64,000 nt of DNA from Flavobacteriales bacterium (GTDB lineage Bacteria; Bacteroidota; Bacteroidia; Flavobacteriales_F; PHOS-HE28). Below, piece by piece: positions 10,597 through 47,819 of the stretch (positions within the stretch are counted from its first letter, which is position 1; each line of letters opens with the position of its first letter). The DNA is taken from NCBI GenBank assembly GCA_039931265.1, contig JBDTSG010000094.1:17448-81447 (forward strand), in the 5' to 3' direction. The notes under the pieces are model-generated. The model was given only the letters and a program-made list of their open reading frames with translations, was not told the DNA's origin and searched no databases. Position numbers and translations under genes: made by a program.

Positions 10597-12201
10597 TCAC
10601 TCCTTCACCACGCGCGTGCGCATCACCTGCGCGCCGCGCTGCACCAGCACCGTGTAGGTGCCCGGTGAAAGTCGCAGGCCCAGTTCGTTGCCCAGACCCG
10701 CAGCCTCTTCCACCGTGCGTCCGCTGGCATCGATGATGCGCACCGCAACGGCAGCATCGGAAAGCGCTCCGCCACTGACCAAGTGGAAGGAGGTGGAGAA
10801 AAGTGAAGGGCAAGCAACGAGACCGGCTTCGGCTTCCGCGATCAGCCCGATGCCGGTGCCCAACGCGGGATCAACGCGCGCTACCACGGAGCCACGCACG
10901 GCCATGGGATCCACGGTGAACGGACCGAAGGTGAACGGATCGCCGGTGGTGGCCACGAGATGGCAGATGCCGTCGTGCGTTACTGCAAGGTCGTGCACCA
11001 CATCGAGGGAAACAGCGCTACCACCCTCGATATGCGAGCGAGCGATGCCCGCGTTATCGAAACTCAACAGGCTGACCTGCTCTGTCTGCAAACCGCCGGT
11101 GTTGGAGACCATGCCGTTGCCCCAATCCACACTGCCGGAAACATTGCCCAGCACGTAGGCGTTCCCATCGTCGTCCACGCCGAGACCCATCCCCTGCCCT
11201 ATTCCGAAACGACCGATGATGCCGGCTTGCGGAGGTTCAACGCCCCATTCGAACACGCCCGAGCTGTCGAGGCGGGTGAGGAAGAAGGAAGTGTTCCACT
11301 CCGGCGCATTGAAGTGCACGTTGCCCCACGATACCGAGTCCAGCTGCGATCCGAGCAGGTAGGCGTGATCTTCCCCATCGGCCACCACACGCGGACGTTG
11401 GAAGGTGACATCGTGCGCGATGTGCAACCATTGTGCATCGCCCGCAGCGTTCATGCGCGCCAGGAAGAAGTTGTATTGCTCCACCACCGGAAAGGTGGTG
11501 CCGTTGATCGACACGCTGGGTACCGAAGCCGAACCCGAGACGTACATGCCGCCCGACGGATCGAAACAGATGTTGCCGATCGTCTTGGTCTCGAGCAAAA
11601 GGCGCGTGATCACCGGAAGTCCGTCGTTATTGAGCCGCACCAGCTTGGAGCCGAAGAAGGTGGAGAGGGCCACCCAGAGCTGCCCTTGCGGATCGAACGC
11701 GAGCGAAGCCACGCTCACATCATCGATCTGCCCGCCGGACTTGTCGTGCTGCCACAGCAACAGACCGTCCGCATCGAACGCACAGATGAAGGATCCCATG
11801 CCCGTGTGGAACGGAGGCACGGCCACCGTGGGATCGCCATCGATCACCAAGTGCCCGAAGTAGCGCCCACCGATCACCACCGTACCGGCCGCGTTGCTGG
11901 TGATGCTCTCCACCTTCACCGAATCATTGAGCACGACGGTCCACACCGGATCGCCGTTGGCATTCAACCGGGAGAGCGAATTGCGGCCAAGGATGTCGTT
12001 CCCATAAAGGATCGTCGCGGAGTCGAGGCCTGCCACGTACACATGATCGGGATCGCGTGCGCAGAGCACATCGGTCGGGAGGCTCGGGTTCAAGTTGAAG
12101 GAATTCGGCGCGACCGTGAGCCACTGCACCTGTTGCGCGGAAAGGAGTTGCGGGAGGAGGCTTGCGGCGAGTGCGGCAGCGAAGAATGAAGTGCGGAACA
12201 T
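10597..12201 (-). CDS. Secreted protein with T9SS C-terminal sorting domain
   Basis: An ATG start gives a signal peptide (MFRTSFFAAALAASLLPQLLSAQ). A beta-rich body is followed by a C-terminus (…GTYTVLVQRGAQVMRTRVVKE) that is CTD-like. Confidence 0.75.
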   Translation of the reverse strand: MFRTSFFAAALAASLLPQLLSAQQVQWLTVAPNSFNLNPSLPTDVLCARDPDHVYVAGLDSATILYGNDILGRNSLSRLNANGDPVWTVVLNDSVKVESITSNAAGTVVIGGRYFGHLVIDGDPTVAVPPFHTGMGSFICAFDADGLLLWQHDKSGGQIDDVSVASLAFDPQGQLWVALSTFFGSKLVRLNNDGLPVITRLLLETKTIGNICFDPSGGMYVSGSASVPSVSINGTTFPVVEQYNFFLARMNAAGDAQWLHIAHDVTFQRPRVVADGEDHAYLLGSQLDSVSWGNVHFNAPEWNTSFFLTRLDSSGVFEWGVEPPQAGIIGRFGIGQGMGLGVDDDGNAYVLGNVSGSVDWGNGMVSNTGGLQTEQVSLLSFDNAGIARSHIEGGSAVSLDVVHDLAVTHDGICHLVATTGDPFTFGPFTVDPMAVRGSVVARVDPALGTGIGLIAEAEAGLVACPSLFSTSFHLVSGGALSDAAVAVRIIDASGRTVEEAAGLGNELGLRLSPGTYTVLVQRGAQVMRTRVVKE

Positions 12202-36006: not shown

Positions 36007-36468
36007 TTATTTCTCGATGTGCTCGAATTGGGAGCGCAGTGTCTTCACGCGGTCCATGTTGCCTTGCACCGCATTGCGTTGCTCTTGAAGCAAAGAGCGT
36101 GTACCCGCTGCCAAGTCATGGTTCTTCAATATGTCGTCGTAGCGCATCAACAGGTACGATTCGCCGCGTTCGCATTCGGCGAGCAGGTTCGCATTGTCCG
36201 CTTTGCTCAGCGCGTCGCGGACCTCCATCCATGTGCGGTGCAGATCGCCCTTCAATGTTCCGTCCCGGTGCGGGGCTCCGGGATCCAGCTTGCGGAGTTC
36301 AGCGTCCAGGTCGGCTTCCAACGTTGCGCGCTCGCTGCTGAAGGCCATCAACAGGTCTTTCACGCGGCGGTCATCGGCGCGCTGGCTTGCTTCCGCGTAG
36401 CCCTTGCGGCCGTCCACGAGCAGGTCGTGCACGTTGTTCAATTCGGTGAGGTCTTTCTTCTGGTCCAT
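36007..36468 (-). CDS. PA2169-family four-helix-bundle protein (DUF2383, ferritin-like)
   Basis: …LNNVHDLLVDGRKGYAEASQRADD…LLAECERGESYLLMRYDDIL… matches the family signature (…CxxGExxA…, …AECERGEDxxxxxYxxAL). Confidence 0.75.
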   Translation of the reverse strand: MDQKKDLTELNNVHDLLVDGRKGYAEASQRADDRRVKDLLMAFSSERATLEADLDAELRKLDPGAPHRDGTLKGDLHRTWMEVRDALSKADNANLLAECERGESYLLMRYDDILKNHDLAAGTRSLLQEQRNAVQGNMDRVKTLRSQFEHIEK

Positions 36469-36590
36469 GGTCGTTGTGTTTGCGAAGGGTAAGCGAGCAT
36501 CAGGCCGAACCCATCCCGAATTCCGATGCACGGGTTTTCCTGAAGAACCCGTGGAATGGATCACACGGTTCGAGGAAAGTCGTGGACAGA

Positions 36591-37202
36591 TCAATGGACC
36601 ACAACCAGCCTTTGCCGCGCGACTTGCCTTTTGCCGCCCTCCACGCACGCAAGGGAATAGCAACCTGCATCCAAGTGGCGCAGGTTCAGCCAGCCGTCAT
36701 CAAGTGGTGCGCTGAATACCAAGCTACCACGAGCATCGTACACCTCCGCTGTCGTGGCGTGCAGCCCATCGGGCATGCGCACATTCACGCCTTCGTTCGC
36801 GGGGTTGGGTGCGATCGAAAGTGTTGGTGCAGTGCTGGGCTCGTTCATACCTGTGGCCGGCTCCACTACGATGAAGCCTTTCTCCCCGTTCACTTCCACA
36901 TGGAAAGCGCATACGTAGTAGAACGTGTCAGCAGTGAGCAAAGCGAAGGTCTGGCTCTCACCAACGAACGCGGGCGGTCCGATTTCCAACCCGCTGATGG
37001 TGCTGCTGTCAGCCAGCCAAGTCTCTTCGCTCACCTGCCGGAAGGAGTGGTCCAGCGCGAAGAAGGTGACCCGCACCGAATCACCCGCTTGGATCACGAG
37101 CGAGTCCGGTGCGAAGCCGCTGTCCGATACGGCGATGTCGTAGGTGGTCTGTGCGGTTGCGCTCAAGCCCATGGCCGAGGCAAGGAGTACGAGGTATTTC
37201 AT
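36591..37202 (-). CDS. Cupredoxin-like secreted protein with T9SS C-terminal domain (degenerate copper site)
   Basis: A signal peptide precedes a plastocyanin-like fold ending YYVCAFHVEVNGEKGFIVV. Cys and His are present but the canonical axial Met is replaced. The C-terminal PNPANE…LVVVH is CTD-like. It is a paralog of 58379-58999. Confidence 0.75.
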   Translation of the reverse strand: MKYLVLLASAMGLSATAQTTYDIAVSDSGFAPDSLVIQAGDSVRVTFFALDHSFRQVSEETWLADSSTISGLEIGPPAFVGESQTFALLTADTFYYVCAFHVEVNGEKGFIVVEPATGMNEPSTAPTLSIAPNPANEGVNVRMPDGLHATTAEVYDARGSLVFSAPLDDGWLNLRHLDAGCYSLACVEGGKRQVARQRLVVVH

Positions 37203-37873: not shown

Positions 37874-38012
37874 GCCGTTGCGTTGACAGATCGCGCGCCA
37901 GTGGTTTCTTATGAACAGGCCACGGTTCGATCGCGTATTTCAACGGCATTGTTGCATGGTTCGGGGATGGCCCAACTACATCGGGGCTTTCACTACACCA
38001 AGAGGAATTGTG

Positions 38013-38032
38013 GAACAACCTGGGGCGCATGC
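38013..38032 (+). terminator. Orphan intrinsic terminator on plus strand (perfect 16-bp palindrome GGGGCGCATGCGCCCC + TTTT)
   Basis: The palindrome was read directly from the sequence. The T-tract lies only on the plus side, and there is no plus-strand CDS upstream within 170 bp. Confidence 0.4.
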
Positions 38033-38159
38033 GCCCCTTTTCCCTGCTCTGCGGCTACCCCAAATCGGTTTTCGGTTCCGCTGAGCGGGCGGAATCATTT
38101 GCTCGCATCTGCAACGCGCATTCGCACGTGCAGGCGGCCTAACCAGCGATCACGCATCC

Positions 38160-38244: not shown

Positions 38245-38730
38245 TTAGTGCCCGTCCTTGTCGTTGTCGGCATCGGTCATTTTGTCGATGCGTTCCGCTT
38301 CGCGCTTGAACCAATTGCCGGTGCTATCGGCAACTACGCGTGTTTCCATTTTCAGGTTCGCCCAATCGGTGGCGGTGGTGGTGGTCATGCGCAGCAGTGC
38401 GGCATCCACGCGGGTAATGTTGATCTGCAACTCGGCGATGTGCCTTTCGCACTCGGCTTTGCGGTCGGCATCCTTGATGCCATCGGCCAATCGTTTCTGC
38501 TCGCGTGCTTGGCGTGCGAACATGTTCTCGCGCAGGTCGTTGAGTTCTTTCACGGCCTCGTCGCGTTCGTTCATCCATTCCTTACTGTCGTCGGCGTTGG
38601 CCATTTCCTGCCGGTTCTCCGACATCTGGTCGGTGGTGCGCTCGGTCTCCTTGCCGGGCTCGCTGCCGCAGGCGGCGAAAATCAGCGCACCGCCCAAGAG
38701 GGCGGCGAATGCAATGCGGTGGGTGGTCAT
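38245..38730 (-). CDS. Hypothetical lipoprotein, charged/helical
   Basis: An internal ATG gives MTTHRIAFAALLGGALIFAACGSE (lipobox). The body is coiled-coil-like and rich in Glu/Arg/Lys. Confidence 0.65.
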   Translation of the reverse strand: MTTHRIAFAALLGGALIFAACGSEPGKETERTTDQMSENRQEMANADDSKEWMNERDEAVKELNDLRENMFARQAREQKRLADGIKDADRKAECERHIAELQINITRVDAALLRMTTTTATDWANLKMETRVVADSTGNWFKREAERIDKMTDADNDKDGH

Positions 38731-38983
38731 TGTTGTGTTTGTTTGGTTCGTGCTGCACCGTAGCACCAAAGACAAGCCGATCCAGTTGCGTACAAGGGTC
38801 GCACGGGATGAACTGCTCCGCAGGCCCTAGAAGGACGGGAGATTTAAGACCTGCTTGCAGCGCGATGGCCGGGTGGCGGACCGGCTTACCATGGGGAGAT
38901 CTTGCCACGATCGTTCTACACCCTTGTATTTGAGCGCTGCGTAAAATTGTACCGATCAACCCGCCCACCTCTTCGCTAGTCGC

Positions 38984-41900
38984 GTGCAAGTCGATTTCCT
39001 CTCCCTTACCGAAGCGGCGGCGCTATTGAAGTGCCACCACAACACGGTGCGCGCTTGGGTGCGCCAAGGCAAGCTTGAAGCGATACCGATGGGCGCAGAA
39101 AAAGTGCCCATGTACCGCAAGCGCGATCTGGAAGCATTGAAGCGTCCGTTGGAGAAAGCGGGTGTGATCGTGCGCGACGACAAGCATGCCTTCCCTGTGG
39201 TGGGCATCGGCGCATCGGCCGGTGGCTTGGATGCCGTATCGAAGGTGCTCGCTACGATGCCCACGGATCTGGGCTTGGCGTATGTGATCGTGCAACACTT
39301 GGAAGCCGAGCGCGAACCCGTGTTCGCCGATCTGTTGCGGAAGAAGACCGCTATGCCCGTGTTCGTGGCCGAGAACGGAATGCGCTTGGACCCCGACGTG
39401 GTCTATGTGATTCCCGGCGGAACCTATGCGGCTGTGGTGAACACCACTTTCGCACTGCGCACACCCAACGAGGCCGCGCGCCCCATCGATGCGTTCTTCA
39501 CCCAGCTCGCCGGCGAGTACCAGAACAACGCCATCGGCATCGTGCTTTCTGGCACGGGCATGGACGGCACTGAAGGGTTGCGCGCGATCAGGGCGGAAGA
39601 TGGATTGACCATCACCCAGGACAGCACCGCGCAGGAACAAGGCATGCCGCAGAGCGCGCAAGAGGCCGATGTGGTGGATGTGGTGTTGAAGCCCGAAGCG
39701 ATCGGCCCCGAGCTTGCTGACCTCGTGAAGCAGTTGTACCCCGGTGGCGAAGCCCGCATACCGGGCAAGCACGAGAACGAGATGCGCCGCATCCTGCAAT
39801 ATCTCTACGCGCAACGCGGCATCGACTTCACCCAGTACAAGGAGGCCACCATCCACCGCCGCATCATCCGGCGCATGGTGCTGAGCAAGTGCCGCAAACT
39901 TGCCGATTACTCCGCGCTGTTGCACGGCTTGCCCAGCGAAGTGGACACCTTGTGCAACGACATGCTCATCAATGTCACCAGCTTCTTCCGCGATCCGCTC
40001 TTCTTCAAGGCGCTCACACAGCAGGTGTTCCCCGCACTGCTGAACGACCGGGTTACGAACGACAGCCTGCGGATATGGGTACCCGCTTGCGCCGGTGGCG
40101 AAGAGGTGGTGGGCATCGCCATCACCTTGTTGGAATTCATCGGCGATCGCGCTGTCACTGCGCCCGTTCAATTCTTCTGCACCGACCTGAACGAGCGCAC
40201 GATCGAGAAAGCGCGATTGGGCATCTACAAGAAGAACGCGTTGCAGAACATGGACCCCGAGCTGGTGAAGAAGTACTTCCAGCATGTGGATGGGCACTAC
40301 CAAGTGATCAAGCCCATCCGCGACATGTGCGTGTTCGCGAAGCACGACCTGCTCAAGGACCCGCCTTTCAGCCGTGTGGACCTGATCAGTTGCCAGAACA
40401 TGCTGATCTACTTGGAGAACGCCGCACAAGGCCGCGTGATCAAGTCGTTCCATTATGCACTGAAGCCAACCGGCTTCCTCGCTCTTGGAAAGTCGGAGAG
40501 CGCGAGCGTGGCCGGGGAGATCTTCGACCAGCCGGATCGCACCTTCAAGGTGTACACCAAGAAGAACACTGGCAGCGAGCGCCTGAACTTGGATGTGCGC
40601 TACAAACCGACCCTGCTGCAACCACCTACCGTTTCCTCCGGCGCGCTTCCCTTTCAGCTATCCGCCACCCTGGCCGATCTGGACCGCGACACGGAGAAGT
40701 TGCTGCTGAACCGTTACACGCCCGCCAGCGTGTTGGTGAGTAAGGACCTCAGCATCGTGCGCTTCCGGGGCAACACCGCTCCTTATCTATCGCCAGCCAC
40801 AGGCAAGGCCAGCTTGAACTTGTTGAAGATGGTGCACGAGGACCTCGTGTTCGAGCTGCGCGGCTTGTTGCAGAAGGCCAAGAAGGAGAAGGGGGCCATC
40901 CGCAAGGAAGGGGTACCCATGCGCGCGGATGATCTGTTGAAGCGCGTTTCGCTGGAAGTGGTGCCCGTGGGCGATCCGCGCGAGCAGCACTATCTGGTGC
41001 TTTTCAAGGAAGACATGCAGGCCACCACCGCACCGCCCGATGGTCGCAAGTGGAAGAACGTGCGTGATGAGCGCGAACGCCGCATCCTTCAACTCGAGCA
41101 GGACCTTGCCGAAGCGCGCGAACAGATGCGTGTTGCAGCCGAGGAATCGGAGACCGCCCAACAGGAACTGCAATCGGCGAACGAGGAGGTGGTGAGCAGC
41201 AACGAGGAGTTGCAGAGCATCAATGAGGAACTGGAGACGAGCAAGGAAGAGTTGCAATCCATCAACGAGGAGTTCGCCACCATCAACGAAGAACTGCAAA
41301 CGCGCAATGAGTCGCTGCTGGAAAGCGAAGAGCGTTACCGGCAGCTGATACACCTTATGCCTGTGGCGGTCTTCGTGTGCGACTCCCAAGGCCGCATCAC
41401 CATCTACAACGAACGGGCAGCGGAGCTTTGGGGAAGGGTCCCTGATCAGCGCGAAGGCCAATGGAACGGGGCGTACAGGCTGTACAGCGCAGCCGGGGAT
41501 CTACTGGCGCATGACGAGGCTCCCATGGCCCGCGCCATCAAGGAAGGCCTCGCCATGATCAACGAGGAACTGATCGTGGAACGACCCGATGGTACCCGGC
41601 GTCGGGTGCTGGTCAATCCCACCCCGCTGCTCGACAGTAAAGGCCGGCCCAGCGGTGCCATCAATGTGCTGGTGGACATCACCGAGCACAAGAAGGCGGA
41701 CGAACAATTGCGGGAAATGCGCGTGCGTCTGGACCTCGCGTTGGATTCCGCCGAACTGGGCACGTGGAACATCGATGGCAGGGTGGAGCACATGACGGTG
41801 GATGAACGGTTCAAAGCCATCTTCGGATGGGCCGGGGACACGATCACCGTGGCACAGGCGTTCTCCGTGCTGCATCCCGACGATCGGGAACCTACACGCG

Positions 41901-44900
41901 TTGCGATCGAAGGGGCGACCCGTCCCGTGGACACCTTGCCGTATGAAGTGGAATACCGTGTGGTCCATCCGGATGGCTCCATCCATTGGGTGCTCGCCAG
42001 AGGGCGGTCCATCTTCACGGATGCCGAGCAGGGCAGGGAACTCCTGAGCTTCAATGGTACCGTGATGGACATCACTGCACGGAGGGCGGCGGAGGATGCC
42101 CTGCGCATGAGCGAGCAGCGCTACCATGTGCTGGCGGACAACCTGCCGCAGATGATCTACATCGGCGACCTTACCGGCAAGGCCATTTGGGTGAATGACC
42201 GATGGGTGGAGTTCACCGGCCTGAGCAGCGAGGATGTGATCGCCGGAAAATGGGCCGAGGCTGTTCACCCGGATGATGCCGGGCCAATGATGGAGAGCTA
42301 CATGCAGTGCTTCGCAAAGGAGCAGGATTGGGAGTTCACCTTCCGGATCAAGAACAAGCAAGGCCAATACCGCTGGTTCCTTTCGCGCTGCTCACCGCTA
42401 CGTGGAGAGAACGGCGAAGTGCTGCGTTGGTTCGGAACCAACACGGACATCACAGAGACCAAGCGGGCAGAAGAAGTGCTACGTTCACAGGCGGAACGCC
42501 AAACGTTCATGGTGCGGTTGGGCGATGCGTTGCGTCCCCTGCTCGATCCCGTGGAGGTGCAAGCTGAGGCGAGCCGACTGCTGGCCGAGCAACTCGGTGC
42601 GGACAGGGTGGCGTATTTCACCATCAAGGATGAACAGTACATCGTGGAGCGCGACCACGCCGTCGGTGTTCCATCCGTCGTCGGGGGATATCCGGTCGCG
42701 GCCTTCGGTGACAAACTGTTGGCCACTTACTTGAGCGGAATAACGGGGCTGAGCGACGATGTGCGGCGTGATCCGAATTTCACATCGGCCCAGATCGAGG
42801 CGTACGACGCGCTCCAATTAAGGGCTTTCATCGGGGTGCCCTTGGTAAAGGATGGAACCTTGGTCGGTGGCCTGTCCATACATAGCGCTCAACCCCGCTC
42901 ATGGACGGCGGAGGAGATCGCGATCGCCGAAGAGACGGCCGAGCGCATCTGGGCCTCAGTGGAGCGCACACAAGCAGGAGCCGCCATGCGCAGCAGTGAG
43001 CAACGGTATCGCATGCTGTTCACCACCATGGAGCAGGGGTTCTGCGTGGTCGAGATCGTCGATGATGAAAACGGGAATGCCATCGACTACCGCTTTGTGG
43101 AAGTGAACCAGGCGTTCGAAACGCACACCGGCCTCTCGAATGCCGCGGGCAAGACCATTCGCGAACTCGTACCGGATATCGAACCGATCTGGACCGAGCG
43201 CTATGCCCGCGTGGCGCGCACTGGCGAGGCAGCGCGCTTCGAGGATCATGCCCCAAGCATGGACCGTTGGTTCGATATCTACGTGTATCCGATGAAGCAT
43301 GCTCCGGGCCGCGTAGGCATCCTGTTTTCCAACGTGAGCGAACGGAAACGCGCAGAAAGGGAGCTCGCCACCAGCGAAGAGCGCTTTCGCCTGCTCAGCG
43401 ACAACATCGCCCAACTTGCTTGGATAGCCGAGCCGGATGGCGCCATTCATTGGTACAACAAACGCTGGTTCGAATTCACCGGCACCACATTGGAGGATAT
43501 GCGAGGTTGGGGCTGGCAGAAGATCCACCACCCGGAGCATGTGGATCACGTAGCGGCGAAATTCAAACACCACATCGAGAACGGCATCGACTGGCAGGAC
43601 ACCTTCCCTATTCTGGGTGCTGATGGCAAATACCATTGGTTCCTGTCCCGTGCGTTCCCGGTGCGCGATGAGAAAGGGACCATCCTGCGGTGGTTCGGCA
43701 CCAACACCGATGTGACCGAATTGCGCGAAGCCGAAGAACGCCTGCGCGAAAGCGAAGTGAACTTCCGAATGTTGGCCGACAACATGGACCAACTGGCCAT
43801 GATCACGGATGCCGATGGAAAGGCTGAATGGTTCAACAAGCGATGGCAGACCGCACTGGGCGTGGACTTCGCGAGCCTGAGCCGTGAAGAACGCTTAAGC
43901 TGGATGCATCCTGATGATGTTGAGCGCATGTGGAACGCGTTCCGGAATGGATTGGCCTCCGGCAAGCCGTGGGATGCGACTTTCCGGATGCGGGTGAGCA
44001 GCGGTGAGTACCGATGGTTCCTTACCCGTTCGGTTCCAGTTGCCGGGCATGAAGGCGAAGTGCTGCGTTGGTTCACCACGAACACGGACATCACCGAAGC
44101 CAAGCAAGCCGCGCAAGTAGTGCAGGATCGTCAGGACCGGTTGATGTCTGCTGCCGAAGCGGCGGAGCTGGGTGTGTTCATGTGGCATATCCACAAGGAT
44201 GAACCCTCGTGGGAGAACGACCGGATGTTCGCCATTTTCGGTCGCACGCGGGAGGAAGGCCCCCTGACCAGTGCGGCGTTCGAACGGGAAGCGGTGCATC
44301 CAGAAGATCTGCCCGGCCTGCGCGAAAAGGTGGCCGGTGCAGTGGCAGAGGTGGGCGCATTCGATCATGTGTTCCGCATTCATCGCCCTGGGGAGAAGCA
44401 ACCCCGTGTTCTTCAAGTGACCGCCCAGGTGCAACAGACCAGCGGAACACCGGACCGCATCGTGGGTGTAATGGCGGACATCACGGACCGCGAAACGGAC
44501 GCCGAAGCGGCACGGCGCTTGGCGGCCATCGTCGCATCCACCCATGACGCCGTGATCAGCAAAGACCTCAACGGGATCATCACCAGTTGGAACCAGGCCG
44601 CCACCGAGGTGTTCGGCTACACGGCCGAGGAGACTGTAGGACGATCCATTCTGATGCTCATACCGGAGGAACTACAAGGCGAGGAGGCGACGATCCTGGC
44701 CCGGTTACGCAAGGGCGAGCGGATCGAGCACTACGAGACCGTAAGGCAGCGGAAGGATGGAACCCGCATCGAGGTGGCGCTTACAGTATCGCCCATCATA
44801 ACGAACGAGGGCGTTGTGATCGGCGCATCGAAAGTGGCGCGGGACATTTCCGAACGCAAGCGTTTGCAACAGGACATCACCACGGCGAACGAACAGTTGC

Positions 44901-46363
44901 GCATGGTCACCTATCACATGCCCGTGGCCGTGGCGCGTGTGGGCCGGGATCAGCGTTTCATGTGGGCAAGTCAGGGTTATCTGGAATGGATCGGGTTGGC
45001 TGAAGCGCGGGTGGAAGGCAAGCAACTGCGCGAAGTGCTCGGCGAAGAGGCCCACGCGGCATTGCTTCCGTACATGGAGCAAGTGCTGAAAGGTGAGCCA
45101 GTAGAATGCGAAGTGCATGTTGAACTGCCTACACGCGGAAAGCGCTGGTTGGATGTGAAGTATGCGCCCCTGTATGAAGGTGAGAACATCCCGTCCGGCT
45201 GGATCGAGGTGATCACGGATATCACCGAGCAGAAGCAGACCGAAGAAGCACTGGAGGAAAGTTCAAAGCACAAGGATCACTTCCTTGCCACGCTTGCACA
45301 TGAGCTGCGCAACCCGCTGGCCCCGTTGAAGAACGGATTGCAACTGATGGAACTGGCGCCCGACGACCCATCGGTGATGGAATCCACCCGGGCCATGATG
45401 ACGCGCCAACTCGACCACATGGTCCGCTTGGTGGACGATCTGATGGACCTGAGCCGGATCAGCCGTGGCAAGATCGAACTGGAACGGGAGCCGGTAGGAT
45501 TGAACGGTATCGTGGCCATGGCCATTGAAGCGAGCAAACCGCACATAGAGAACAAAGGACACCAGTTGGAGGTGGACATGGGCCACGCGGACAACATAGT
45601 GAACGGTGATGCCGCGCGGTTGACACAAGTGGTGGCCAACTTGCTGAACAATGCGGCCAAATACACCCTCCAAGGTGGTCGCATAAGCATTGCCGTAGGA
45701 CGCCGTGGCGATGAAGCGGAGATCCGCGTGAAAGACAATGGCATCGGTATTGAACCGGCCTTCTTGTCGCACGTCTTCGACATGTTCGCCCAAGTGGACC
45801 CTTCACAGAAAACCCAAGCCGGTGGTGGATTGGGGATCGGCTTGAACATCGTTCAGCGGCTGGTGAACATGCATGGCGGCACTGTTGAAGGGCGTAGTGA
45901 AGGATCGGGGCGTGGAAGCGAGTTCATCGTGCGCCTGCCCGTGTTGCCCTCCATTCAGCGACCTGCGGCCGCGCCATCTTCCAAGACCCGCCCCGAAGTG
46001 CCGTCGCGACGCTTGCTCGTAGTGGATGACAACCATGACGCCGCACTTTCAATGTCGATGATCCTCAAGAAGCGTGGCCACCTGGTGCAGGTCGCGAACG
46101 ATGGGGAACAGGCCCTGGCAGTAGGTGCCACCTTCCATCCGGAAGTGGTGCTGATGGATATCGGCATGCCGCGGATGAACGGCTATGAAGCGTGCGCACG
46201 CATGCGCACTTCGGACTGGGGTAAGGACGCTTTGATCATAGCGCTAACCGGCTGGGGCCAAGAGGAAGATCGGCGTCGCAGCCAGGAGGCCGGTTTCGAT
46301 AACCACTTGGTGAAACCCATCGAGACAGGCACATTGGAGCGTATGATCGCTTCGGTGAAGTGA
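38984..46363 (+). CDS. Giant chemosensory hybrid histidine kinase (2459 aa): HTH + CheB methylesterase + CheR methyltransferase + coiled coil + multiple PAS + GAF + HisKA/HATPase_c + REC
   Basis: Domains and approximate coordinates: HTH_17/excisionase-type (LSLTEAAALLKCHHNTVRAWVRQGKLEAIP), 38996-39135. CheB (FPVVGIGASAGGLDAV…), 39190-39735. CheR (…RIWVPACAGGEEVVGIAI…LISCQNMLIYLE…), 39775-40575. Heptad coiled coil (EELQSINEELETSKEELQSINEEFATINEELQTRNE), 41075-41340. Six or more PAS blocks with the recurring (E/Y)RWFLSR…(G/E)xxxRWFGTNTDIT(E) motif, 41340-45240. GAF, ~42540-42970. HisKA H-box HELRNPLAPL, ~45290, with HATPase_c (G-boxes DNGIGI, GGLGIGL) to ~45950. REC (LLVVDDNHDAAL…D…K), 46005-46360. 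The start is GTG at 38984, directly after an in-frame stop. Confidence 0.9.
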   Translation: MQVDFLSLTEAAALLKCHHNTVRAWVRQGKLEAIPMGAEKVPMYRKRDLEALKRPLEKAGVIVRDDKHAFPVVGIGASAGGLDAVSKVLATMPTDLGLAYVIVQHLEAEREPVFADLLRKKTAMPVFVAENGMRLDPDVVYVIPGGTYAAVVNTTFALRTPNEAARPIDAFFTQLAGEYQNNAIGIVLSGTGMDGTEGLRAIRAEDGLTITQDSTAQEQGMPQSAQEADVVDVVLKPEAIGPELADLVKQLYPGGEARIPGKHENEMRRILQYLYAQRGIDFTQYKEATIHRRIIRRMVLSKCRKLADYSALLHGLPSEVDTLCNDMLINVTSFFRDPLFFKALTQQVFPALLNDRVTNDSLRIWVPACAGGEEVVGIAITLLEFIGDRAVTAPVQFFCTDLNERTIEKARLGIYKKNALQNMDPELVKKYFQHVDGHYQVIKPIRDMCVFAKHDLLKDPPFSRVDLISCQNMLIYLENAAQGRVIKSFHYALKPTGFLALGKSESASVAGEIFDQPDRTFKVYTKKNTGSERLNLDVRYKPTLLQPPTVSSGALPFQLSATLADLDRDTEKLLLNRYTPASVLVSKDLSIVRFRGNTAPYLSPATGKASLNLLKMVHEDLVFELRGLLQKAKKEKGAIRKEGVPMRADDLLKRVSLEVVPVGDPREQHYLVLFKEDMQATTAPPDGRKWKNVRDERERRILQLEQDLAEAREQMRVAAEESETAQQELQSANEEVVSSNEELQSINEELETSKEELQSINEEFATINEELQTRNESLLESEERYRQLIHLMPVAVFVCDSQGRITIYNERAAELWGRVPDQREGQWNGAYRLYSAAGDLLAHDEAPMARAIKEGLAMINEELIVERPDGTRRRVLVNPTPLLDSKGRPSGAINVLVDITEHKKADEQLREMRVRLDLALDSAELGTWNIDGRVEHMTVDERFKAIFGWAGDTITVAQAFSVLHPDDREPTRVAIEGATRPVDTLPYEVEYRVVHPDGSIHWVLARGRSIFTDAEQGRELLSFNGTVMDITARRAAEDALRMSEQRYHVLADNLPQMIYIGDLTGKAIWVNDRWVEFTGLSSEDVIAGKWAEAVHPDDAGPMMESYMQCFAKEQDWEFTFRIKNKQGQYRWFLSRCSPLRGENGEVLRWFGTNTDITETKRAEEVLRSQAERQTFMVRLGDALRPLLDPVEVQAEASRLLAEQLGADRVAYFTIKDEQYIVERDHAVGVPSVVGGYPVAAFGDKLLATYLSGITGLSDDVRRDPNFTSAQIEAYDALQLRAFIGVPLVKDGTLVGGLSIHSAQPRSWTAEEIAIAEETAERIWASVERTQAGAAMRSSEQRYRMLFTTMEQGFCVVEIVDDENGNAIDYRFVEVNQAFETHTGLSNAAGKTIRELVPDIEPIWTERYARVARTGEAARFEDHAPSMDRWFDIYVYPMKHAPGRVGILFSNVSERKRAERELATSEERFRLLSDNIAQLAWIAEPDGAIHWYNKRWFEFTGTTLEDMRGWGWQKIHHPEHVDHVAAKFKHHIENGIDWQDTFPILGADGKYHWFLSRAFPVRDEKGTILRWFGTNTDVTELREAEERLRESEVNFRMLADNMDQLAMITDADGKAEWFNKRWQTALGVDFASLSREERLSWMHPDDVERMWNAFRNGLASGKPWDATFRMRVSSGEYRWFLTRSVPVAGHEGEVLRWFTTNTDITEAKQAAQVVQDRQDRLMSAAEAAELGVFMWHIHKDEPSWENDRMFAIFGRTREEGPLTSAAFEREAVHPEDLPGLREKVAGAVAEVGAFDHVFRIHRPGEKQPRVLQVTAQVQQTSGTPDRIVGVMADITDRETDAEAARRLAAIVASTHDAVISKDLNGIITSWNQAATEVFGYTAEETVGRSILMLIPEELQGEEATILARLRKGERIEHYETVRQRKDGTRIEVALTVSPIITNEGVVIGASKVARDISERKRLQQDITTANEQLRMVTYHMPVAVARVGRDQRFMWASQGYLEWIGLAEARVEGKQLREVLGEEAHAALLPYMEQVLKGEPVECEVHVELPTRGKRWLDVKYAPLYEGENIPSGWIEVITDITEQKQTEEALEESSKHKDHFLATLAHELRNPLAPLKNGLQLMELAPDDPSVMESTRAMMTRQLDHMVRLVDDLMDLSRISRGKIELEREPVGLNGIVAMAIEASKPHIENKGHQLEVDMGHADNIVNGDAARLTQVVANLLNNAAKYTLQGGRISIAVGRRGDEAEIRVKDNGIGIEPAFLSHVFDMFAQVDPSQKTQAGGGLGIGLNIVQRLVNMHGGTVEGRSEGSGRGSEFIVRLPVLPSIQRPAAAPSSKTRPEVPSRRLLVVDDNHDAALSMSMILKKRGHLVQVANDGEQALAVGATFHPEVVLMDIGMPRMNGYEACARMRTSDWGKDALIIALTGWGQEEDRRRSQEAGFDNHLVKPIETGTLERMIASVK

Positions 46364-46367
46364 CGGA

Positions 46368-47147
46368 TCACTTCAAAGCCCGACCGAGAAAACCCTTTGC
46401 CGCTTCGTTGAACACCTCAGGTGCTTCCGCGTTGGGCAAGTGTGCCGCATCAGGAACGATCACCAAATGCGCCCGGGGCACCGACTTGCTCATTGTTCCG
46501 CTTTCGGTGCTGGGGATCAGCGTATCCCGCTCTCCGGCAATGATCAACGTTGACACATGGATCCCGGCCAGCATACCGGTTCGATCAGGCCTTGCGGCCA
46601 TGCCGCGCAAAGCAGCAACAACGCCATCCACACGTTGTTCAGCCATCATCGACCTGATGGATGCACCGAGTTCAGGTCGTGCGGCAAGCGTTGTGGGCGC
46701 CAGCATCTTCGGAAGCATGTCATCGGCCAACCGGGCCACGCCTTTGTCCAGCACCGCGAGGGCCGTTGCCTCTCTGGCGCTCTTTGCTTCATTGCTGTCC
46801 GCGCCAGCCTTGGTGCTGCAAAGTATCAGGCCCCGAAGCGCTCCGGGAAAGCGTGCGGCGAACGCCAGCGCAACATACCCCCCCATTGATAACCCGCAGA
46901 TCACAGCACCAGTGATACGCAAGTGCTCGAGCAGCGTCTTCACATCCGCTGCGTGCTCCTCCATTCCCATGGTGGCAGGCACATCAGTGGCAGCGCCGAA
47001 GCCGCGCAGGTCCGGTACGATCAGACGCGCGCTGTTGCGCAATCCGTTCAACTGCGGCTCCCACAAACGCCGATCGTGCGGAAAACCGTGGATGAGCACC
47101 AGCGGAATACCTGTGCCCACTTCGGAATACGGGAGAAGTCGTGTCAT
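46368..47147 (-). CDS. Alpha/beta-fold hydrolase
   Basis: The HG oxyanion motif is IPLVLIHGF and the nucleophile elbow is GLSMGG. Length and motif order are typical of the family. Confidence 0.85.
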   Translation of the reverse strand: MTRLLPYSEVGTGIPLVLIHGFPHDRRLWEPQLNGLRNSARLIVPDLRGFGAATDVPATMGMEEHAADVKTLLEHLRITGAVICGLSMGGYVALAFAARFPGALRGLILCSTKAGADSNEAKSAREATALAVLDKGVARLADDMLPKMLAPTTLAARPELGASIRSMMAEQRVDGVVAALRGMAARPDRTGMLAGIHVSTLIIAGERDTLIPSTESGTMSKSVPRAHLVIVPDAAHLPNAEAPEVFNEAAKGFLGRALK

Positions 47148-47819
47148 CTGAGCGGTCGTTCAAGTTCAAGCATCGGCCTTGCACATCTGTTGCATCCACG
47201 CCGCGGATCGTAGAAATAGTGTGGCGGTCATTGCACAGCACCAGCATGCGTGGCTGTGGTCGGCTCTGCTGCATCGCTATCATTCCCTACCAATTCTGCC
47301 GGATCGAACAACCACAACAACGAGAAAGCGCCGATGGAAACGATCACAAGCCAGAACATGAGCTTTGAGAGCACGGACTGCGGAAGCAGTTCAGGTTCTG
47401 AAGCCGAGCGCGTGGTCATTTTGTCTATGGGATGATGGGGCATGAGGTGTGGGCTTGGCAAATGTGTTCGCACAAACGCTACGCCATCCGGGATCGGCGC
47501 CGGATCTGCCTCAACGCGTTCAAAATCCGATCCGATGCCCACAACCCACAATGCCACCGCATCTGCAACTGCAGGTGGCACCGACAACTCATCGCCCAAT
47601 GCGCCAAACGGGAAAGAGATGCGACCAAGGCGTCGCCGCGTACTGCGACCTTACTTCAGTGTGAAACTTTCAGAGGCGGAGCGGAAGTTCCGAACGTGAG
47701 GCGGAAAATGGATCCTGCGCGCAGCACCATGCCTTGATCCTGAAAGCCTCGTTCGATCAACGATGAACAGCGGCAGTTCACAAACTGACCGCACACATAA
47801 CTTTCGCAAAACACCGATC

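Follow-up and report, generated by a model that had tools for sequence, protein, structure and literature searches.

An excisionase-type winged helix at the head of a CheB/CheR-fusion hybrid kinase in Flavobacteriales

Does a sensor kinase of the CheB/CheR-fusion type carry a DNA-binding-type domain of its own, or is the helix-turn-helix (HTH) encoded at the start of its reading frame a relic lying ahead of the true start codon? The question is raised by a 64,000-nucleotide stretch of a Flavobacteriales genome (contig JBDTSG010000094.1; hereafter the window, at its full length), in which a single unbroken open reading frame (ORF) on the plus strand, 38984-46363, opens with GTG and runs for 2459 codons to a TGA stop at 46361-46363, exactly as described in the initial annotation. 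The in-frame stop that was said to lie immediately before this GTG is a TAA at 38942-38944, 13 codons upstream, with GTG being the first start codon thereafter. The encoded protein belongs to the CheB/CheR-fusion kinases and bears an added HTH_17/excisionase domain, for which DNA binding is predicted. The elements at the 5′ end of the gene are as follows.

38942-38949, plus strand: TAAAATTG, a -7-like promoter element with one mismatch to the Bacteroidota consensus TAnnTTTG (weak consensus evidence)
38984-38986, plus strand: GTG start codon, the only in-frame start that keeps helix 1 of the HTH whole
38996-39160, plus strand: winged HTH (HTH_17/excisionase/MerR-like), residues 5-59, identified by Pfam, TIGR01764, AlphaFold2 (AF2), Foldseek and the orthologues
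39161-39196, plus strand: linker, residues 60-71 (GVIVRDDKHAFP region), modelled by AF2 as a block with a predicted local distance difference test (pLDDT) value of 61, conserved in sequence within the clade

The N-terminal domain was identified by profile and by fold. HTH_17 (PF12728) matched residues 5-52 at 39.0 bits (E 9.6e-10, cut-off 27) in the isolated 69-residue N-terminus and at 32.1 bits in the full-length protein, and the NCBIfam model TIGR01764, 'excisionase family DNA-binding', gave 31.5 bits against a cut-off of 28.8, bearing out the motif that the initial annotation had recognised. MerR_1, aligned over profile positions 2-47 of 69, reached 22.1 bits (cut-off 21.6) with the isolated N-terminus and 14.9 bits with the full protein, and the BldC family model NF033787 scored 16 bits against a cut-off of 77, so that likeness to BldC lies in the fold only. 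AF2 models of residues 1-62 (pLDDT 92.6) and 1-255 (pLDDT 91.8) contained a short strand, helices at 8-14 and 19-27, a two-strand wing at 33-45 (strands 33-36 and 41-45), and a helix at 46-59, giving the helix-turn-helix, two-strand wing and C-terminal helix of the MerR-like winged fold. Foldseek searches of the PDB returned MerR-like winged helices exclusively, most of them DNA complexes and the best ones all DNA-bound, with E-values that are modest for a domain this small; BldC, Xis, RacA and NmlR were matched at probability 1.00 and template modelling (TM) scores of 0.66-0.83, the BldC-DNA structures at a root-mean-square deviation (rmsd) of 1.4-1.6 Å and TM 0.73-0.83, and Pukovnik Xis, CvkR, CarH, CadR and MtaN were also among the matches. 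By sequence, the best solved relative was Pukovnik Xis (E 0.007). The long dimerisation helix of MerR is absent, helix 46-59 leading by a flexible linker to CheB; because of this, and because the BldC family model is failed, the domain is placed in the excisionase/BldC class of winged helices, a MerR regulator proper being ruled out. BldC and the excisionases have the same fold and size and likewise lack the long dimerisation helix, but they are free proteins of 50-75 residues, whereas the HTH in the window is the head of a 2459-residue kinase.

Whether the domain belongs to the protein was assessed from orthologues. Eight Flavobacteriales loci from metagenome-assembled genomes (MAGs; one-genome-per-species contigs), at 66-89% identity, aligned with the window protein from query residue 4-6 onward. 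The HTH was in frame with CheB at seven of these loci and at L011 (together L001-L006, L008 and L011), as well as in about eight metagenome fragments. The HTH-bearing megaprotein of the initial annotation is thus real, the domain being conserved in every intact orthologue. The orthologues usually start with ATG, 13-21 codons 5′ of the LSLTEAA motif; in the window gene this ancestral ATG and N-terminal tail have been lost, and it relies on GTG. Across nine sequences, the mean proportion of synonymous differences (pS) within the HTH was 0.63, near saturation, and that of nonsynonymous differences (pN) was 0.19, giving a ratio of 0.31, compared with 0.33 for the linker (alignment residues 48-66) and 0.37 for the first 84 CheB residues. 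Guanine-plus-cytosine (GC) content at the three codon positions was 0.68/0.38/0.71 in the HTH versus 0.64/0.41/0.74 in the whole gene, and 0.57/0.54/0.65 in the upstream spacer, while the substitutions private to the window lineage within the HTH were conservative (I/V, L/V). On this comparison of coding sequences, the HTH is a translated and selected part of the protein, under purifying selection as strong as that on CheB.

The start codon was considered in the same light. After GTG 38984, the next in-frame candidates are TTG 39026 (Leu15) and ATG 39089-39091 (Met36), the latter being the downstream ATG that had been placed at about 39086. In the AF2 model, Met36 occupies a hydrophobic position inside the domain, in strand 2 of the winged helix, and since other lineages have L, V, F or I at the equivalent site, its conservation is that of a structural residue and not of an initiation codon. 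The TAAAATTG element sits 35 nt 5′ of the GTG, its first three bases being the TAA stop that bounds the ORF, and one-mismatch -7-like elements were found 17-43 nt 5′ of the predicted starts in L001, L002, L003, L004, L005 and L011, which is weak evidence. A sigma-70 scan of 38600-39400 returned nothing, so that no promoter of that type lies between HTH and CheB, where one would have told against the HTH-bearing protein; the scan is otherwise uninformative for Bacteroidota.

In two loci from long-read MAGs, L007 and L012, the orthologous gene was chopped by frameshifts throughout into several called genes, some of which appear in databases as spurious stand-alone HTH proteins, and was uninformative on gene structure, and L011 contained one frameshift after residue ~345 (around 11100-11143). 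These frameshifts are probably assembly errors, with real pseudogenes as the lesser possibility. P0125 and P0126, considered as an unfused HTH with a separate CheB ancestor, are products of the L007 and L012 genes, and because those genes are frameshifted throughout, they provide no evidence for a split system.

The distribution of the domain was then defined by searches with the N-terminus and with the HTH. Using the first 330 residues as query, ~1,375 CheB/CheR-fusion relatives were retrieved, with HTH_17 in the three closest alone (68-76% identity). Relatives of this fusion type (~1,400) occurred in Proteobacteria, Planctomycetota and gliding Bacteroidota, with some even in bins assigned to archaea, and those lacking the HTH started 15-60 residues ahead of the FPVVGIGASAGG strand, with unrelated, non-conserved tails. 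Among CheB/CheR fusions, an N-terminal HTH was confined to the window clade and the P0182/P0203 lineage. The possibility that orthologues start at CheB without any HTH therefore fails for the 66-89% orthologues, in which the domain is in frame, and holds for the wider family; because that family starts at CheB without an HTH, the domain is a clade-specific addition. Database names of such proteins were generic ('CheB/CheR fusion protein', 'PAS domain S-box protein').

When 1.84 billion cluster representatives were searched exhaustively with phmmer, 172 proteins were retrieved at E<=0.001, among which kinase-type architectures formed four groups. The first comprised the orthologues (P0001, P0002, P0127-P0129, P0135), and the second the Bacteroidota-like P0182 (1839 aa) and the fragment P0203, with the order HTH_17-CheB-CheR-PAS-GAF-PAS-kinase-receiver. 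The third was P0130, a form with CheB-CheR deleted whose HTH and linker lead straight into the tail end of the coiled coil, and the fourth comprised P0245 and P0278, CheB-less HTH_17-PAS(-GAF)-kinases of low-GC organisms. Three other proteins (P0200, P0217, P0220) were one-component HTH_17-PAS-GAF-HTH_17 proteins. The CheR of P0182 was 59% identical to that of the window, versus 40-47% for HTH-less fusions, and its CheB was 31% identical, with the GASAGG serine motif lost (VLSTQED). Because of the higher identity of this CheR, the HTH was probably gained once in the Bacteroidota CheB/CheR-fusion lineage; the domain is retained where CheB is decayed or deleted, which argues that its role goes beyond regulating CheB.

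Several features of these variant loci were also recorded. The P0182 gene (L017 6001-11520) was preceded by genes for a HAMP-array kinase, a hybrid kinase, and a single-domain receiver. P0130 (1110 aa, on a 79.7 kb NCBI/ENA contig) had the junction ...GASAGE...EEYATINDEL..., kept its PAS/GAF array, and had a C-terminus that looks frameshifted; its loss of CheB-CheR may be a natural deletion or a misassembly. P0245 (L018 5001-8053; HTH_17-PAS-GAF-PAS-kinase) was followed by a 152-aa receiver-only gene, with a second receiver-only gene nearby.

Outside the orthologues, the nearest relatives of the HTH were very numerous stand-alone proteins of 65-75 residues from the Candidate Phyla Radiation (CPR) and Atribacteria, which have in common with it the subfamily signature LKCH(P/H)NT(L/V)RxW...G and, in the ~70-aa forms, the invariant residues E10, L15, C17, H18, N20, T21, R23, W25, G29, L31 and G37, a signature of DNA-contact type that the kinase-borne HTH has thus kept. 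Cys17-His18 (39032-39037) forms an invariant pair opening the second (recognition-type) helix in kinase-fused and ~70-aa stand-alone forms alike. A profile search with the HTH alignment was dominated by the ~70-aa proteins, and a census of kinase fusions could not be drawn from it. The closest stand-alone relative, P0291 (L013-L016 4001-4222), lay between a Toprim primase-like cluster and type I/IIG restriction-modification methyltransferase genes, a context of mobile-element or defence-island type that recurred on many metagenome contigs. A Rosetta-stone link of the stand-alone HTH to kinases was rejected, P0291 adjoining primase and restriction-modification genes and not kinases. The signature common to the stand-alone relatives, one of them lying beside primase and restriction-modification genes, suggests that the HTH head was recruited from a small DNA binder of mobile-element type.

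Downstream of the linker, the polypeptide contains the following regions, with PAS domains resolved by Pfam scanning of overlapping protein pieces.

39200-39715, plus strand: receiver-less CheB methylesterase, Pfam residues 73-244 (PF01339, 164 bits)
39779-40510, plus strand: CheR methyltransferase, CheR_N 266-313 (PF03705, 49 bits) and the S-adenosylmethionine (SAM)-binding CheR domain 330-509 (PF01739, 152 bits)
40511-41128, plus strand: conserved region after CheR, residues 510-715, no Pfam domain assigned
41129-41353, plus strand: EE-heptad coiled coil of six to seven xSxNEEL heptads, with EE pairs every 7 residues over 730-778 (41171-41317)
41357-42466, plus strand: PAS 1-3 (792-903, 937-1016, 1052-1161), Pfam
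42551-42958, plus strand: GAF (1190-1325), Pfam
43001-45238, plus strand: PAS 4-9 (1340-1455, 1473-1582, 1604-1707, 1745-1830, 1845-1955, 1978-2085), Pfam
45272-45943, plus strand: kinase core, HisKA 2097-2161 and HATPase_c 2208-2320, from Pfam and motifs
46016-46348, plus strand: C-terminal receiver, Response_reg 2345-2455, no output domain after it

CheB contains the motifs of the catalytic triad, with Ser78 in GASAGG (76-81), His105 in QHL (104-106), and Asp194 in GTGMDG (190-195), and its model superposes on 1chd with an rmsd of 1.8 Å over 190 residues, 3sft also being a match of methylesterase fold. In CheR, an ACAGGEE segment was read as the SAM-binding motif; the strict motif pattern failed to match. 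Residues 510-715 were 38-49% identical to P0182 and P0128, and a tenth, PAS_10-like domain after CheR was discarded, no Pfam match being found at E<=1 in residues 520-699. The nine PAS domains agree with the six or more that had been expected. The kinase boxes are H2106 (HELRNP), N (NLLNNA 2219), G1 (DNGIG 2251) and G2 (GGGLG 2280), and the receiver retains D2348/D2349 (VDD), the acceptor Asp2392 (DIGMP), and Lys2444, ~2,300 residues away from the HTH. No transmembrane segment was found (maximum 19-residue Kyte-type hydropathy, KD19, 1.48), indicating a soluble protein.

Between CheR and the sensor array, residues 730-771 read SANEEVV SSNEELQ SINEELE TSKEELQ SINEEFA TINEELQ. These EE heptads partly fit the chemoreceptor methylation consensus [ASTG][ASTG]xx[EQ][EQ]xx[ASTG][ASTG] and have the same 7-residue spacing. 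The coiled coil is near-identical in L001, L005, L008 and P0182 (L017), lineages that are otherwise ~50% identical, and the motif was also present in the HTH-less CheB/CheR fusions L009 and L010 (Balneatrix and a Pseudomonadota MAG). From this likeness, the EE heptads are candidates for an internal substrate on which the fused CheR and CheB would act.

The protein was compared with known systems on this basis. The CheB/CheR-fusion kinases of KEGG K13924 have the same receiver-less CheB, CheR_N and CheR, NEELQ heptads, PAS/GAF array, and HisKA-HATPase-receiver output, and many relatives carry the K13924-type label 'two-component system, chemotaxis family, CheB/CheR fusion protein' (Joint Genome Institute, JGI); these fusions begin at CheB without HTH_17, whereas the window protein adds the winged helix. 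Canonical CheB has the same methylesterase fold, the same Ser/His/Asp motifs, and likewise a small N-terminal domain on a flexible linker, but there that domain is a phospho-accepting receiver, while in the window it is a winged helix and the enzyme is fused to CheR and a kinase. Bacteroides hybrid two-component systems (HTCS) similarly combine kinase, receiver and DNA-binding domain in one Bacteroidota chain; those systems sit in the membrane, sense sugars through periplasmic domains and end in an AraC HTH that immediately follows the receiver, whereas the window protein is soluble, has no AraC domain, ends at the receiver, and has its MerR/excisionase HTH at the N-terminus. CarH/LitR and the three one-component proteins likewise place a MerR-like winged helix (N-terminal) ahead of cytoplasmic sensor domains but have no kinase, receiver, or CheB/CheR; the complete phosphorelay and the methylation module are extras of the window protein. 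Functionally, it can be likened to a one-component sensor of the CarH or PAS-GAF-HTH_17 type that has been grafted onto a hybrid kinase. In CarH, the oligomeric state of the sensor sets DNA binding. HTH_17 has been listed among domains coupled to sensor domains (PMC8717448).

The genes flanking the kinase are listed below.

38002-38142, plus strand: remnant of a MEDS-domain (PF14417) gene, last 46 codons and stop, 74% identity
38248-38775, minus strand: 176-aa ORF, divergent 5′ neighbour, with sub-threshold Pfam matches only and by eye a small signal-peptide/coiled-coil protein
46368-47147, minus strand: convergent alpha/beta-hydrolase gene, its 3′ end 4 nt from the kinase stop

The kinase gene is monocistronic, since its upstream neighbour is divergent and the downstream alpha/beta-hydrolase gene convergent; the plus-strand ORF at 46360-47151 is a shadow of the latter. 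The ORF at 38248-38775 does not belong to the system; the transcription unit is bounded by it on the 5′ side. In four other loci, an intact MEDS gene of 192 residues lay directly 5′ of the kinase on the same strand (L004 5232-5810, L005 5258-5836, L007 5245-5823, L012 9290-9868), and L003 and L006 matched the first 44-47 MEDS codons only, apparently as shortened versions. In the window, the minus-strand gene is inserted between the MEDS remnant and the kinase start; the MEDS gene may be a lost co-sensor partner, and a 5′ rearrangement may lie behind the loss of the ancestral ATG and tail and the use of GTG. Farther upstream, 36010-37202 on the minus strand encodes a DUF2383 protein and a cupredoxin-like protein with a Por_Secre_tail sorting domain of the type IX secretion system (T9SS), in keeping with a Bacteroidota origin. 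No second kinase or receiver was found in the 64-kb window, and scans over 1-64000 gave no tRNA or tmRNA gene and no Rfam family at gathering score. At the window, P0245 and P0182 loci, the receivers have no DNA-binding output, and the only DNA-binding-type domain is the kinase's own.

We favour, with fair but not high confidence, the reading that the kinase itself carries a DNA-binding output, or anchor, in the form of the HTH. The protein would dimerise by way of its coiled coil, PAS array and dimerisation and histidine phosphotransfer (DHp) helices and so pair two HTHs, which would bind specific DNA, the kinase in this way supplying the output usual for a partner response regulator. Signals sensed by the PAS and GAF domains would alter N-terminal geometry or oligomeric state, and hence DNA occupancy; reversible methylation of the EE heptads by the protein's own CheR and CheB could feed the same N-terminal change, and the kinase would in parallel phosphorylate its own output-less receiver. 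That other cytoplasmic sensors (P0200, P0217, P0220, P0245, P0278) use HTH_17 as their domain of DNA-binding type was counted in favour. Several points weigh on the other side. DNA binding, an operator and a regulon are predictions from the domain; the distance between HTH and receiver makes phospho-control of DNA binding not obvious; and AF2 gave no confident docking of the HTH on CheB across the linker (pLDDT 61). The regions 5′ of the orthologous genes gave no alignment with one another, and no conserved operator-like repeat was found upstream of the gene, the repeats in 38740-39000 being short, two-copy and at chance level; inverted repeats upstream in L004, L005 and L007, considered as operators, resemble terminators belonging to the MEDS gene on that side. 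No Shine-Dalgarno sequence can be seen ahead of the GTG, which is usual for Bacteroidota, yet leaves the start unproven in this strain. By analogy, small MerR-like domains may also serve roles outside transcription, RacA anchoring chromosomes. TorI binds a response regulator.

These points bear on the alternatives, the nearest of which keeps DNA binding and removes regulation. If the HTH were to tether the sensor to the nucleoid or to chromosomal sites, in the manner of RacA, the real output would be phosphotransfer, consistent with RacA being among the best fold matches, with the long coiled coil and intact kinase-receiver output, and with the failure to find an operator; the closest relatives (BldC, Xis, MerR-type and PAS-GAF-HTH_17 proteins) are nonetheless site-specific regulatory binders, and the surrounding genes include no DNA-binding response regulator as a partner, making a pure anchor unlikely. 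A role without DNA binding, in which the HTH replaces the receiver of CheB and either controls or masks the methylesterase or attracts a partner protein, would explain why the domain sits exactly where that receiver would, N-terminal and on a short linker conserved within the clade, and excisionase-like proteins can bind proteins, as in TorI-TorR. The HTH is, however, kept in the P0182 lineage despite the decayed CheB motif, in P0130 though CheB-CheR is gone, and on the CheB-less kinases P0245 and P0278, which makes it independent of CheB; with no confident HTH-CheB contact in the AF2 model either, such a module was judged improbable. A similarly low probability was given to a transcription factor with chemotaxis-style adaptation, in which a promoter-bound HTH would have its occupancy tuned by methylation of the protein's own EE heptads. 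The heptads and the HTH lie on the same side of the protein, and tuning of DNA binding by methylation is speculation; if true, nine PAS domains and one GAF domain would feed gene expression with memory in one polypeptide, and the kinase and receiver would serve as feedback.

The two remaining alternatives concern the start codon and not the function of the domain. Two isoforms might be made, from GTG 38984 and from internal Met36 or Met43, and the HTH-minus form might dominate in this strain, whose gene has lost the ancestral ATG and tail, depends on a weak GTG start, and has a 5′ flank rearranged relative to the orthologues (MEDS remnant, inserted gene). Met36 is, however, a strand residue replaced by L, V, F or I elsewhere, the HTH of this lineage shows conservative changes only and normal codon bias, and an HTH-minus product would bear a useless half-domain, leaving this arrangement very doubtful. 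Least credible of all is the fossil reading put forward in the initial annotation, with the HTH codons as an untranslated or decaying mobile-element remnant and the true start at the downstream ATG. The stand-alone relatives in mobile-element-like contexts (primase, restriction-modification) and a GTG without visible ribosome-binding site would suit it, but the domain is conserved in frame in at least eight genomes (66-89% identity), where synonymous change is saturated and pN/pS is 0.31; it has a gene-like codon-position GC, contains no stop or frameshift, and folds confidently in the model. Because of the in-frame orthologues, the purifying selection, the gene-like codon GC and the position of Met36 inside the wing, this reading was rejected.

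Full-text literature searches found no paper on HTH-bearing CheB/CheR-fusion kinases or discussing this architecture, and no experimental study of CheB/CheR-fusion kinases, whose output is, to our knowledge, not known. The natural variants aid comparison, including a decayed CheB with the HTH retained, a form with CheB-CheR deleted, and HTH-PAS kinases beside output-less receivers. With DNA binding by the head as predicted, the window protein would represent a second Bacteroidota way, besides the AraC-type HTCS, of joining kinase, receiver and DNA-binding domain in one chain, and a clade with its own DNA-binding-type head would offer experiments a way into a large, uncharacterised family of kinases and a route to its targets and phenotype.

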